A DNA stretch of 64,000 nucleotides from Mariniblastus sp. (GCA_031400405.1 JANNPW010000050.1:20646-84645); one strand, 5' to 3'; positions 4,690 to 22,267 are shown, counted from the first letter of the stretch. Translations and numbers: made by a program. Notes: a model not told the origin generated them from the letters alone.

Positions 4690-5358
4690 TCAGACAAACT
4701 TCCCGTTGTCCAGTCGAACCTGTTTTTGAAACAGGCTTGCCAAGCGTTCGCTATGAGTAACACAAATCAGCACCGCTTGATCCGCGTGTTGCAGTTCCAA
4801 CAGGACTTCGCCGATTTTTTCAGCGTTCGCCGGGTCCAAGCTGCCCGTGGGTTCGTCGGCCAAGACCAATACCGGCGAACAGATCAACGCCCGTGCAAAC
4901 GCGACGCGCTGACGTTCTCCGCCGGATAATTGTGCAGGGCGATGATGACGGCGATCTTGCAATCCGACGCGTTCGAGCAACATGGTCGCGCGCTCGACGG
5001 AATCTCGCGTCGTATGGCCTTGGGCGACGATCGGAATCAGCACATTTTCAAGTGCCGACAATTGCGGCAGTAGATAATGTTCCTGGAACACAAAACCGAT
5101 TTTTTGATTGCGGAACGCCGCGATTTTCTGGGGAGGGATTTGGCCCAAATCCGTACCGAGAAGCGTGACCGTTCCGGCTGTCGGTTCGTCGAGCGTTCCG
5201 GCGATATGCAGGAACGAACTCTTGCCACTGCCGCTCGGGCCGACCACGGCGATGTTGTCACCGCGATTGAGTTCCATTGAGACACCGGCCAGAATCCGCA
5301 AGGGTCCGGTCGGAGTTTCAAATTCTTTGACAATTTGCGTGGCAACAAAGTCAGCCAT
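4690..5358 (-). CDS. ABC transporter ATP-binding protein (LolD/MacB family)
   Basis: GPSGSGKSS Walker A, FVFQEHYL Q-loop, LSGGERQRVAFARAL signature, LADEPTGSLD Walker B, CVTHS H-loop; start placed at MADFVAT (5358), not the ORF-track 5475. Confidence 0.93.
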   Translation of the reverse strand: MADFVATQIVKEFETPTGPLRILAGVSMELNRGDNIAVVGPSGSGKSSFLHIAGTLDEPTAGTVTLLGTDLGQIPPQKIAAFRNQKIGFVFQEHYLLPQLSALENVLIPIVAQGHTTRDSVERATMLLERVGLQDRRHHRPAQLSGGERQRVAFARALICSPVLVLADEPTGSLDPANAEKIGEVLLELQHADQAVLICVTHSERLASLFQKQVRLDNGKFV

Positions 5359-5715
5359 AATTCTCGTTCCATCAAAAGGTTGACGGAATTCTATCAAAGC
5401 GTGAGGAGACTTGTATCGGGGACGGCTTGATACAACAGACGCGTCAATCGTTCGCGATGAGACCATGCGCTGCAATCACCAGGATGATATGATAGCTGTT
5501 GAAACCACGATTTTTGAGCAAATGAACCGAACGGTGCAGGTTGAATAACCGTTTTTCACGGAAAAAATATGGAATTCGAGGCCTGATTAGCGGGCAATTC
5601 GTTCGAAATTGTAAAATCTCGTACTTTTTGATTTTGTGCAATGGTTGGGCGGTCACTATACTAGTGCCTACGGAAACTGAACTACATTGATCCTTCAGCG
5701 GAGAGGCAGACAAAT

Positions 5716-18945: not shown

Positions 18946-19179
18946 CCCGACAATTTAACGCTAATCGTCACGGAACAGAAGTTGTCGAGCGATTGGGTTT
19001 CAGCTTGAATTGCACTAGAATGTCACTTCTGGAAGATCGGCCAGGTGGAGTTTCCGTTTTGGCCGAAACCACGTCAGGACTTTGTTGGTCGTCGTGGTTG
19101 GTCTCCGAGCGTGTCCTGCCAATCGAGGCGGCCGTATTCCAGATTGCCACCAAAACACAATTGCAGTGGAACGACTACG

Positions 19180-19965
19180 ATGCTGTTAAATGAACCAGGT
19201 CGAACGGATTACGATTTGACCTTCAACCTGTTTGGGTTTGAAGTTCGTACGCATCCAGCATTTTTTATCATGCCGATTTTGTTAGGGCGGGGTTTTTTGT
19301 CAGCATTTCAGAATTCGGTCAACACGGGTGTGGGCTGGTTGGTGTTGATTGCGGTTTTCTGGCTGTCAGTTTTGATTCATGAATTGGGACATACGTTTGC
19401 ATTTCGGTTTTATGGAATCCATTCGCGAATTGTGTTGTATTGGATGGGTGGATTGGCGATTCCGGATGGCGCGAATGTGTGGCGATCCCGGCGGTCGAAT
19501 TCGCTGCGGCCTGGCCAACAAATCGTGGTGTCACTGGCGGGGCCGGTCGCCGGATTGTTGTTGTCTGGCGTGTTGTGCTTGCTGGTGTATACCTTGGGAG
19601 GACGAATCGGTTTCGGAAATTTTTTGTTGCCGATCCCGTTACCCGACTTTGAAGGAGCTGTCATCCCCACAGCGGGCGTGGTCGCCCTGATTTTTTGGTC
19701 GGGAATTTTGTTGAATTTTCTCATGAATCTCTTCAATCTGGTGCCGATCTTTCCGTTGGACGGTGGTCAGATCGCGCGGCAAATCATGATTCAAGCGGAT
19801 CCTCGCGAGGGCCTGAGAAACAGTATTTTCCTGTCGTTGGCCGCTTGTGTTGGCATGATTTTGCTGTGTTTGAAGTTTGGCAATGAATTTGGCGCGATCT
19901 TTTTTGGCTTCATGGCCTTTTCCAACTATCAATCCCTTCAGGGTTTGGGTGGGTCGCGTTGGTGA
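19180..19965 (+). CDS. Site-2 protease family (M50) intramembrane metalloprotease
   Basis: VLIHELGH (HExxH), VSLAGP, FNLVPIFPLDGG (NxxPxxxxDG); start placed at MLLNEP. Confidence 0.9.
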   Translation: MLLNEPGRTDYDLTFNLFGFEVRTHPAFFIMPILLGRGFLSAFQNSVNTGVGWLVLIAVFWLSVLIHELGHTFAFRFYGIHSRIVLYWMGGLAIPDGANVWRSRRSNSLRPGQQIVVSLAGPVAGLLLSGVLCLLVYTLGGRIGFGNFLLPIPLPDFEGAVIPTAGVVALIFWSGILLNFLMNLFNLVPIFPLDGGQIARQIMIQADPREGLRNSIFLSLAACVGMILLCLKFGNEFGAIFFGFMAFSNYQSLQGLGGSRW

Positions 19966-20942
19966 GCGCAATTGGATTTGGCTCCGACATTTTTTCCCTG
20001 CCGCCGCTGCGGTCACCGCGACTGACAGTGATGCGATGGACTTGAATCGAGCACTTCGCTGGTGCATCAAGTAAATCGAATTCAGATGTTAAAGGGTGCG
20101 GAGATACCAAATTTCGCCGTTCGGGGAAAAAAAATCAAAAAAAATTCAAAATATTTTTTTCTGACCCAATGGCTCCCCACGTGTTCGCAATCTGTGCCTC
20201 AGAAAATTGTCTAACGAAGTTTCGATCGAAGTCGTTTGTATTTCAATGGTACAGTTTTTTATTGTTCCACCATGGTTTTGTTTCGCAAACGAGTGTTTGG
20301 TTGCTGTTGGTAGGGCAATGCTCCGGTTGTGGGGCGGCGCTGGAAATCTGGCAGGCAATTCAAATTGCTGCGATAAAAAAACAATTCAAAATTCGCAAAA
20401 ACTTTATTTTTGTTTTTGACTTCGAGGTCGTTGGGCAGTTCGCGACTGTCGTGAATTGAAATAAAAATTGGTTTAAGAATCGGCTTTCCATGTCATCTCA
20501 ATTCTTTCAGCGACGATCAATCGTGGCTGATATTGTCGATAATGTATTTACAACTTGTTACAGTTGAAAACATTTGGAAAAGTGTTGAGGCTGACGAGCG
20601 GCAGGTGTTTGTGGACGAAAAAAGTTGTGCGAATTCAATTGCGCGATTCAGCGATCGGGAAAAAAATTCAGAAAAATGAAAAAACGACATTGAAAAATCC
20701 AATTTGTTTTTTAAAACTATGTCAATCGTGTTCTGCAAAACAAAACAACGAGGCAACAGTAGTCGAAGAACTTTGGTTTTTCATTCCACTGGTTTAATCG
20801 CTGATTAGTTAATTCACCATCGATGGTTGAATGCAGAACGACAGCCAAACCAAATTTGGTTTTTCAAATGGTGGGTTGGACTTTATTTTGGCAATGACGC
20901 CAAGAGTTCAATTTGCCTAGGTCTATTAACGGAGGACGTCCT

Positions 20943-21071
20943 GTGGCCAAAAAGAAAGCAGCGAAAAAAGTAGCTAAGAAAGCTCCAGCTAAAAAAGCTA
21001 CCAAGAAAAAAGCAGCTAAAAAAGTTGCTAAAAAAGCTGTTGCCAAAAAAGCAACTAAAAAGAAAAAATAG
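20943..21071 (+). CDS. 42-aa Lys/Ala-rich histone H1-like (Hc1/AlgP-like) microprotein, absent from ORF track
   Basis: GGAGG RBS at 20931-20935, GTG start, MAKKKAAKKVAKKAPAKKATKKKAAKKVAKKAVAKKATKKKK*, 22 Lys and 13 Ala, terminator-like hairpin downstream. Confidence 0.85.
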   Translation: MAKKKAAKKVAKKAPAKKATKKKAAKKVAKKAVAKKATKKKK

Positions 21072-21104
21072 TTAGTCGCTCGAGACTGACTGACACAACG
21101 AGAA

Positions 21105-21138
21105 AGGGCCGCTAATCATTTCAGCGGCCCTAAGTTTT
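21105..21138 (+). terminator. Probable terminator between the K-rich gene and convergent mrp
   Basis: agggccgct (21105-21113) / agcggccct (21123-21131) stem followed by aagtttt. Confidence 0.6.
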
Positions 21139-21193
21139 GCGCGGCCTGAAGATTGGCCGTTTTTCCCGCTGCAGCCTGATTTCGTGGAAAAAC

Positions 21194-22267
21194 CTAGCCC
21201 AACACGGGTAGTTTTGCGACCGGTGGTTGCGCAGCGGCTTGCGCCGCCAAATTTAGGCACAACTGGTTAGCCACCGCTTCGAGATAGGGTCCCACCGCCG
21301 GATCATCAAAATTAGCCGCCATCGAACCGGCATCGCCCCGCTCCCGCAGACTGATATTGATCGGAATCTCACCAAGAAACGGAATCTTGTCTTGCAGTGC
21401 ATATTCCCGCGCTCCACCTTTGCCGAAAATATCGTATCGTCGACCATTGTCCGGGCAGATGAAACTGCTCATGTTTTCAATCAAGCCGATCACCGGAATC
21501 TTGACTTTGCGAAACATCCCCACCGCTTTGATGGCGTCGATCAACGCGACTTCCTGAGGAGTGCAAACAATGATTGCCCCAGTCAACGGTAATAGCTGCG
21601 ACAAACTCAGCGCGATATCTCCAGTTCCCGGAGGCATGTCGATGATTAGATAATCGAGATCGCCCCAAGCCGTATCGCGAACAAAAGTCGTAACGGCCGA
21701 ATGCAGCATGGGACCACGCCAAATAACGGCTTCGCCGGGAGGCACCATGAACCCGATGCTCATTAGCGGAATGCCATCGTAGTCCAGTGGCTGAATTTTA
21801 TTTTCGATTTTCGTGACTTGCCCCCGGATGCCGGTCAGGTGTGGAATGCTGGGTCCATAAACATCCGCATCCAACAAACCGACTCGACAGCCGCCTCGTT
21901 TGAGCGCCAGAGCCAAACTCACAGCAGCCGTACTCTTTCCAACACCCCCTTTGCCGGCGGCGATGGCGATCACTGCTTTGGCCGTCAAGCCAACTTGTCC
22001 CACGGGTTGAGCTGGCCGGCTATGCGGCACAATGTCCACTTTGATTTTCGAATTGGGAAACTGGTTTCGCAAGGCACTCTCGAGTTGCCGTTGAAAATCG
22101 GATTTCAATGGCCAAGCAAACGAAGTCAAACCAATTTCCACCGCGATGGAATCCGTTTCCACACGGATGCCGTGAATTTGTTTCGCCAAGCCGCGACCCG
22201 TTTCGGGGTCTTTGATCGTCGACAATAATTGGCGTACTGCGTTCGCTAATTCGCTGGATTCAGTCAT
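21194..22267 (-). CDS. mrp: Mrp/NBP35 (ApbC) Fe-S cluster carrier ATPase with N-terminal DUF59-like domain
   Basis: IKDPETGR N-domain; AGKGGVGKST deviant Walker A; DADVYGPSIP; VIWRGPM; DMPPGTGD; ENMSSFICP. Confidence 0.93.
   Translation of the reverse strand: MTESSELANAVRQLLSTIKDPETGRGLAKQIHGIRVETDSIAVEIGLTSFAWPLKSDFQRQLESALRNQFPNSKIKVDIVPHSRPAQPVGQVGLTAKAVIAIAAGKGGVGKSTAAVSLALALKRGGCRVGLLDADVYGPSIPHLTGIRGQVTKIENKIQPLDYDGIPLMSIGFMVPPGEAVIWRGPMLHSAVTTFVRDTAWGDLDYLIIDMPPGTGDIALSLSQLLPLTGAIIVCTPQEVALIDAIKAVGMFRKVKIPVIGLIENMSSFICPDNGRRYDIFGKGGAREYALQDKIPFLGEIPINISLRERGDAGSMAANFDDPAVGPYLEAVANQLCLNLAAQAAAQPPVAKLPVLG

Follow-up and report, generated by a model that had tools for sequence, protein, structure and literature searches.

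The C-terminal tails of linker histone H1 are rich in lysine and alanine (and proline and threonine), have no acidic residues, and fold on binding DNA. Coxiella ScvA and the protamines are very small, highly basic proteins that are tied to condensed chromatin. The chlamydial protein Hc1 binds and compacts DNA (PMC1403754), and Hc2 (HctB; PF07382) is thought to be involved in DNA compaction likewise. Hc2 consists almost entirely of short Lys/Ala-rich repeats with no folded domain, and both the number of repeats and the length of the protein (165-237 aa) vary between strains (PMC2848022). The KPAA-type Lys/Ala/Pro-rich repeat tracts of Pseudomonas AlgP and PhaF bind DNA in vitro (PMC9239181). 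Lys/Ala-rich disordered polycations also form the tails of mycobacterial MDP1/HupB and of actinobacterial HupS and TopA, where they have been shown to be required for DNA compaction or enzyme processivity (PMC10810275, PMC5974015, PMC7398561); the tail of MDP1 is essential to its compaction function (PMC10810275). A condensed nucleoid recurs in strain descriptions of planctomycetes. The proteins responsible are undefined (PMC3440768), in agreement with the first-pass annotation of the locus discussed here, which had called the planctomycete compaction factors poorly defined.

The window (i.e. the whole 64,000-nt stretch of Mariniblastus sp. DNA that was analysed, from a freshwater-sediment population) contains a short reading frame (Table 1) whose product, MAKKKAAKKVAKKAPAKKATKKKAAKKVAKKAVAKKATKKKK, has a net charge of +22. 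It is composed of 22 lysine, 13 alanine, 4 valine (including the start), 2 threonine and 1 proline residues, so that 52% of the chain is lysine, with no arginine, aspartate or glutamate. A recount of the translated frame thus agrees with the 22 lysines of 42 and the lack of acidic residues that had been noticed earlier, and the GGAGG ribosome binding site and GTG start that had been proposed are both present. The chain of 42 residues is thus a polycation made up of AKK-type repeats, and it lacks a folded domain. The frame is 34% G+C, compared with 52% for the window, and uses GCT for 7 of its 13 alanines, compared with 16% in the long ORFs of the window. No further tract of this Lys/Ala type was found within the 64 kb.

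Table 1. Positions of the Lys/Ala gene, its signals and its neighbours, counted from the first nucleotide of the window.
Feature	Position	Strand	Basis or remark
M50-family peptidase gene (synteny anchor)	19045..19965	+	Pfam PF02163, E 4.8e-17
A-tract-rich stretch GGGAAAAAAATTCAGAAAAATGAAAAAACGACA directly upstream of the -35 box	20655..20689	+	read from sequence
Promoter-like element: TTGAAA (-35), 16-nt spacer, TAAAAC (-10)	20690..20717	+	between-species comparison
5' untranslated leader, about 219 nt	20724..20942	+	start site predicted, +/- a few nt
Conserved leader stem-loop	20869..20918	+	20869-20881 pairs with 20906-20918; inner hairpin TTGGCAATGACGCCAA
Shine-Dalgarno GGAGG	20931..20935	+	spaced 7 nt from GTG; read from sequence
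Lys/Ala coding sequence	20943..21071	+	GTG start, 42 codons, stop TAG at 21069-21071
Repeat copy 1, residues 3-20, KKKAAKKVAKKAPAKKAT	20949..21002	+	sequence comparison
Repeat copy 2, residues 21-38, KKKAAKKVAKKAVAKKAT	21003..21056	+	sequence comparison
Antisense Phe/Leu/Ala-rich 60-aa ORF	20864..21046	-	mirror of the Lys/Ala frame; judged not a gene
Bidirectional intrinsic terminator, common to mrp	21105..21139	.	hairpin AGGGCCGCT...AGCGGCCCT at 21105-21131
mrp/apbC Fe-S cluster carrier gene, convergent (synteny anchor)	21194..22267	-	NCBIfam ApbC, E 1.2e-85; Pfam PF10609, E 7e-92

The protein resembles Hc2 in its short lysine-rich repeats of variable copy number (here an 18-aa duplication of 4-5-residue AKK units), in the lack of any folded domain, and in coming from the same PVC superphylum. 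By contrast the Pirellulales proteins are 2-10 times shorter than Hc2 (16-105 aa) and have almost no arginine, and while Hc2 is the product of a late developmental gene in an obligate intracellular pathogen, transcripts of the Pirellulales gene are abundant in situ, in aquatic bacteria that live free. The Hc2 profile has a gathering threshold of 40 bits; it gave no match to the window protein, and with four orthologues it gave 7.4, 8.9 and 15.9 bits and in one case no match. Because the sequence is of low complexity, homology to Hc2 cannot be established.

The composition (22 Lys, 13 Ala and 1 Pro of 42) is that of an H1-type basic tail, and the protein is predicted to be helical. It has no winged-helix globular domain (Pfam Linker_histone, H1/H5), the whole sequence being Lys/Ala repeat, and proline is rare; it is a free-standing tail. 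It shares tandem Lys/Ala repeats and a very high positive charge with the KPAA tails of AlgP and PhaF, but these have an N-terminal folded domain and a proline in every repeat, whereas the window protein starts MAKKK and contains a single proline. AlgP organises polyphosphate granules and PhaF PHA granules; the Pirellulales protein lacks a second domain that would give such specificity. The tails of MDP1/HupB, HupS and TopA are joined to a folded HU or topoisomerase domain, whereas here there is the tail alone. ScvA and the protamines are dominated by arginine, which is absent from the window copy and makes up 3.3% of the family. The N-terminal domain of Hc1 (HctA) found no counterpart in Pfam or NCBIfam searches, and the range of 16-105 aa does not suit the small ribosomal proteins (bS22, bL36, Thx), which have a conserved sequence, a fixed length and a recognisable profile. 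By the features that define these families, therefore, the product does not belong to H1, Hc1, Hc2, AlgP or the protamines. The first-pass annotation had called it histone-H1-like and protamine-like; this holds for the composition, which resembles H1 tails, Hc2 and AlgP, while the features that define H1 and the protamines are missing. The kind of protein (H1-like Lys/Ala low-complexity bacterial proteins) was already known. The present one is a tail-only microprotein family that is widespread in Pirellulales, of which we found no description in the literature searched (for the most part outside the subscription journals).

Family searches returned no Pfam-A match for the 42-aa protein at E <= 1, a single spurious NCBIfam match (a ValRS model, aligned at its Lys-rich end with E 0.93), no sequence match in the PDB, ribosome structures included, and no Rfam match in 20000-21400. 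A protein search with the 42-aa query yielded 1914 word-sharing candidates and none at E <= 1e-3; a 95-aa orthologue gave weak, composition-driven matches only (best E 3.7e-4), mostly to the Lys/Ala tails of SWIB-domain proteins, of topoisomerase I and of other DNA-binding proteins. We note that tracts of the same type are very common in metagenomes as tails on bacterial SWIB/MDM2-domain (PF02201) proteins and on the C-terminal repeats of topoisomerase I. In a collection of 15 billion proteins neither the exact 42-aa protein (two start variants looked up) nor any of 10 orthologue sequences with the conserved start was present. One Logan contig does have a gene call for the protein of the window. 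Public relatives (P0034, P0065, P0093, P0096 and L083 4001-4282) are named 'hypothetical protein', and their gene calls often begin too early, with a spurious N-terminal extension running across the ribosome binding site (e.g. ...DGGFAVPKKK), as in P0034, from a Rhodopirellula MAG. In the window a longer TTG start at 20913 (giving 52 aa) was rejected; it would enclose the conserved Shine-Dalgarno sequence, and the added residues show no conservation at the protein level. A role as leader peptide or attenuator was also rejected, since downstream on the plus strand there is only the terminator and the convergent gene.

Orthologues were sought using the neighbouring Mrp/ApbC protein as query, with one genome per species. 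This gave 80 Pirellulales loci, the nearest being from Mariniblastus with 81% Mrp identity. About 7 of these were too short to judge; a Lys/Ala ORF is present in 52 of the remaining 73 or so. Syntenic homologues next to mrp, whose absence the first-pass annotation had listed among the signs that would tell against the gene, were therefore found. The order of the block is conserved as M50 peptidase, Lys/Ala gene and convergent mrp. Of 51 orthologue loci, 41 have an M50 homologue upstream of the Lys/Ala ORF and on its strand, as does an additional Rhodopirellula MAG (L083). The Lys/Ala ORF lies on the opposite strand to mrp; the gap from the mrp stop was measured in 41 loci, and in 39 of these it is 112-563 nt. 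The carriers include the cultured Stieleria magnilauensis TBK1r and Aeoliella sp. SH292.

The Shine-Dalgarno sequence, the ends of the ORF and the composition were analysed in 51 of the 52 loci, and start codons were counted in 42. GGAGG stands 6-8 nt ahead of the start codon in all 51. Nearly all of the 51 begin with GTG; in the count of 42, GTG accounts for 39 starts and ATG for three. The preference for GTG holds despite deep divergence, with Mrp identity falling to about 50%, and the stop codons are TAG in 33 of the 51 and TAA in 18, with no TGA. The N-terminus is nearly always MAKK, the repeat units include VAKKK, ATKKK and AAPKK, and the frames stop 0-4 residues past the last Lys or Arg. 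The family as a whole is 56% Lys, 25% Ala, 6% Thr, 4% Val, 3% Arg and 2% Pro, with no Asp or Glu. Lengths are 20-105 aa in 51 loci and 16 aa in the remaining one, so that the reading frame is preserved through a more than six-fold variation in length. The family conserves composition and charge, not sequence or length. The shortest member (L060 3491-3541, minus strand), MAKKKAAKKAKKKKKK, has the same Shine-Dalgarno sequence, GTG and downstream hairpin, and is well under any usual gene-calling threshold.

About 20 related loci, among them those of high-GC lineages and several with the label Pirellula sp., lack the gene here; it is thus not universal, or has moved. The intergenic DNA of the high-GC lineages that lack it is 67-73% G+C, and in these lineages the gene has been either lost or relocated. 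In six high-GC loci (L036, L042, L048, L054, L065 and L066) mrp lies beside the M50 gene with no intervening Lys/Ala ORF.

The tandem duplication of residues 3-20 and 21-38 that had been reported for the window protein was borne out, the two copies being identical at 17 of 18 amino acids and 43 of 54 nucleotides. The reported codon counts are also correct, i.e. eight synonymous codons and one non-synonymous (CCA/GTT), and 9 of the 11 nucleotide differences fall at codon position 3. At least eight synonymous changes among nine random single-base changes occurred in none of 20,000 simulations. Reading the same differences in the other two sense frames gives 1 synonymous to 8 non-synonymous and 0 to 9, so these frames are excluded. 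The antisense frame is not, as it shares third codon positions and gives 7 synonymous to 2 non-synonymous; the ratio therefore shows that one of the two frames is constrained, not which. The earlier argument for purifying selection was thus right in its numbers, while as a choice of the sense over the antisense frame it fell short.

The lysine codons carry a further signal. The longest A-run in the ORF is 6 nt, compared with 10.4 expected on shuffling AAA and AAG among the lysine codons (p = 0.01). AAG codons break the runs of lysine, and homopolymer A-runs are held at 6-8 nt. The runs are shorter than expected in 43 of 51 orthologues, significantly so relative to random AAA/AAG placement in the AT-rich ones. 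The pattern is consistent with a message that is translated and under selection against poly(A) slippage. In one RNA contig (run X19, depth 6.9 of 48.4) there is a 3-nt in-frame deletion at 21003, precisely at the junction of the repeat copies, consistent with frame-preserving repeat slippage.

Upstream, the motif TTGAAAA-N15-TA[AC]AAC precedes the start by 218-312 nt, both in the window and in seven close relatives (L002-L005, L008, L009 and L011), with a looser match at -362 in an eighth (L017). A generic sigma-70 scan missed the element in the window, and flagged only spurious sites inside the ORF or just past it. Close relatives are likewise A-rich just upstream of the -35 box, and the A-tracts at this position in the window are a possible UP-like element. 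The leader contains a conserved stem-loop whose stem is preserved through two-sided changes; over the whole leader RNAalifold with eight sequences predicts 26 pairs, 13 of them with such changes. The stem-loop explains the 'CTCGCC' motif that recurs upstream of the ribosome binding site. The whole mRNA folds with z = -4.96 relative to shuffled sequences. A second small hairpin at 20920-20948, invariant in sequence, encloses the Shine-Dalgarno sequence and the start codon, with GGUC paired to the G of the GUG start and the GCC codon. The long structured leader and start-site hairpin may provide dosage or autoregulatory control, and the near-universal GTG start taken with the conserved leader suggests that dosage is controlled.

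The GC-rich hairpin 34 nt past the stop codon is followed by TAAGTTTT. It had been described as the gene's own terminator, which proved mistaken; it has a T-rich 3' flank for the plus strand and an A-rich 5' flank that becomes a T-rich tail on the minus strand, and so serves the convergent mrp too. Most orthologues have a hairpin after the stop codon, the stem of which differs in sequence yet still pairs. The Lys/Ala gene is a single-gene transcription unit with a strong promoter.

Transcription was examined in assembled metatranscriptome contigs, which carry no strand information. Of the 31-mer words sampled from 20720-21135, 18-69% are present in at least 11 runs from different studies. In four freshwater runs near-identical contigs (>=97% identity) span 20767-21102, 20840-21095, 20751-21009 and 20887-21037, together covering 20751-21102; they touch no second gene of the window. 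None extends further upstream than 20751, and right ends at 21095-21102 fall just short of the terminator hairpin. The depth is zero on mrp and on the upstream DNA, and all that these runs show for the rest of the window is 35-39 nt of tRNA-Leu, a single contig of 151 nt and a few partial matches of 18-35 nt. The tRNA-Leu(CAA) gene lies at 829-912 on the minus strand, and the 35-39-nt pieces matching its conserved 3' part come from contigs of other organisms. Since coverage is confined to about 350 nt of 64 kb, carry-over of DNA as the source of the contigs is excluded. The agreement of the contig ends with the promoter and terminator suggests a transcript of the sense strand.

A marine Mariniblastus orthologue (L008) behaves in the same way. 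Coverage from four marine runs is limited to the gene with its leader (5214-5660), reaching depths of up to 78-485 compared with 0 on mrp, and the contigs end at 5658-5660, the start site that had been predicted beforehand from the promoter motif. In the data examined the Lys/Ala mRNA exceeds every other transcript of the 64 kb in abundance in situ. A transcript over the frame, whose absence would have told against the gene in the terms of the first-pass annotation, is therefore present, abundant and short. We consider it very likely that the frame is a real expressed gene, and translation of the message is probable. Many other contigs (runs X1, X11, X18 and X19) match 20945-21055 at 90-95% identity and then diverge, some of them at depths of 10-39, so similar genes of other organisms appear to be abundantly transcribed.

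From the single sequence AlphaFold predicts one helix over residues 2-41 (pLDDT 87.7). The charge has a period of 4.5 residues (moment 0.29), while its moment at 100 degrees per residue is only 0.03; the lysines therefore wind round the predicted helix and form no single face. Such an arrangement suits wrapping round a phosphate backbone and argues against membrane activity, and we rejected the idea of an amphipathic antimicrobial peptide with segregated faces on this ground.

For the locus it is established how the gene is built, that it is conserved and syntenic, that its codons are constrained and that its transcript is highly abundant; the role of the product has to be judged from its composition, which suggests binding and compaction of DNA or of another polyanion. 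We rank first, with a probability of about 0.5, an explanation running from gene to mechanism in which the protein binds and compacts the nucleoid. The abundant peptide would bind the phosphate backbone of nucleic acid without sequence specificity, becoming helical as its charge is neutralized. It would then neutralize and bridge DNA in the manner of the H1 C-terminal tail, Hc2 and the polycationic tail of MDP1, and the bridging would contribute to compaction of the nucleoid. Histone-fold proteins occur in Planctomycetota (PMC11390915) and HU homologues have been found in Gemmata (PMC3440768), so other compaction factors are available, and this counts against the nucleoid role. A bolder form of it is that the tail-only polycation is the principal charge-neutralizing chromatin protein of Pirellulales and lies behind the condensed planctomycete nucleoid; this is possible, though we would lean against it. 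Were it true, a free-living bacterium would have a counterpart of the linker-histone tail or protamine made from one of its most abundant mRNAs, and the GTG start and structured leader would be a dosage control balancing a potentially toxic polycation with DNA. It would have been missed through ORF-length cut-offs or a false N-terminus, through masking of low complexity, and through cleavage by trypsin to very short fragments.

Judged by composition alone, RNA, ribosomes or polyphosphate are as plausible a target as DNA. AlgP, the closest analogue with such repeats to have been studied, proved to be an organiser of polyphosphate granules, which also counts against the nucleoid role. The strongest alternative, although an unlikely one, is that the polycation acts mainly on RNA, as a ribosome- or rRNA-binding factor, RNA chaperone or condensate former whose abundance is matched to that of ribosomes. 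A very high abundance of mRNA and a long structured leader are typical of genes of the translation apparatus too, the codon bias points to high expression, and RNA is the most abundant polyanion of the cell. Repeat peptides with a positive charge are reported to cause their cellular targets to phase-separate aberrantly (PMC10028949). Against this, a family of 16-105 aa with free turnover of repeats is ill-suited to a fixed stoichiometric site on the ribosome, and the searches that found no ribosomal family in NCBIfam or Pfam and no ribosome structure in the PDB point the same way.

Less likely still is a scaffold or tether for granules of polyphosphate, or of another polyanion, on the model of the KPAA-repeat tail of AlgP. 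Polyphosphate granules are evenly spaced only when AlgP has its Lys/Ala/Pro tail, and the protein is conspicuous in granule proteomes owing to its charge (PMC9239181); the window protein has a charge density of this kind. However, the folded N-terminal domain of AlgP and PhaF has no equivalent here, proline is rare (1 of 42, and 2% in the family), and the linked genes, for the M50 peptidase and Mrp, are not polyphosphate genes. The same study notes that tryptic proteomics may underestimate AlgP and PhaF (PMC9239181), and by analogy the Pirellulales protein may be underestimated too.

Should the function prove to lie in RNA or polyphosphate binding, the family would remain a new and abundant polycation of the cell. 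As a nucleoid-condensing protein it is a concrete candidate, conserved across much of an order and of a size that can be synthesized chemically; being conserved, abundant, small and present in cultured strains, it makes the question of the planctomycete nucleoid factor directly testable. Gene callers skip the Lys/Ala gene or add a spurious N-terminal extension, and profile searches give nothing significant. With these blind spots, and that of tryptic digestion, similar polycations could be overlooked in other phyla.

It is very improbable that the RNA is itself functional (e.g. as an A-rich, chaperone-binding transcript) or that the antisense 60-aa ORF is the real gene. In favour of these readings are the strandless contigs, the many AAN triplets of the sequence and the 7 to 2 ratio given above for the antisense frame. 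Yet antisense ORFs open automatically here because the sense protein contains no Tyr, His or Gln codons. They are present in 48 orthologue loci, and an SD-like site precedes one of them; the sense strand has its Shine-Dalgarno sequence and start in 51 of 51. The sense ORF is tightly bounded by the lysine tract, whereas the antisense ORF reads on through the conserved sense-strand Shine-Dalgarno sequence and leader. The ends of the contigs fit the sense promoter and terminator, and the RNA has no Rfam match. The antisense ORF was rejected as a gene on these grounds.

An exported or surface polycation that binds external polyanions (sulfated algal polysaccharides or the envelopes of other cells), acting as adhesin or antimicrobial, scarcely deserves credence: mycobacterial Lys/Ala/Pro-rich HBHA does bind heparan sulfate at the surface without a classical signal peptide, and Pirellulales often live on sulfated-polysaccharide surfaces, but this protein has no signal peptide and no hydrophobic segment, is not amphipathic as membrane-active peptides are (moment 0.03), and is encoded at a conserved chromosomal position of housekeeping type. 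One paper on HBHA (PMC10665949) concerns a nucleoid-associated role of that protein.

Between the M50 gene and the promoter, at 19966-20690, lies about 720 nt of low-GC DNA (36-47%) with no convincing ORF and no RNA contigs over it. Three similar A-tract motifs of the form AAAAAATTCA[A/G]AA are found near 20133, 20377 and 20662.
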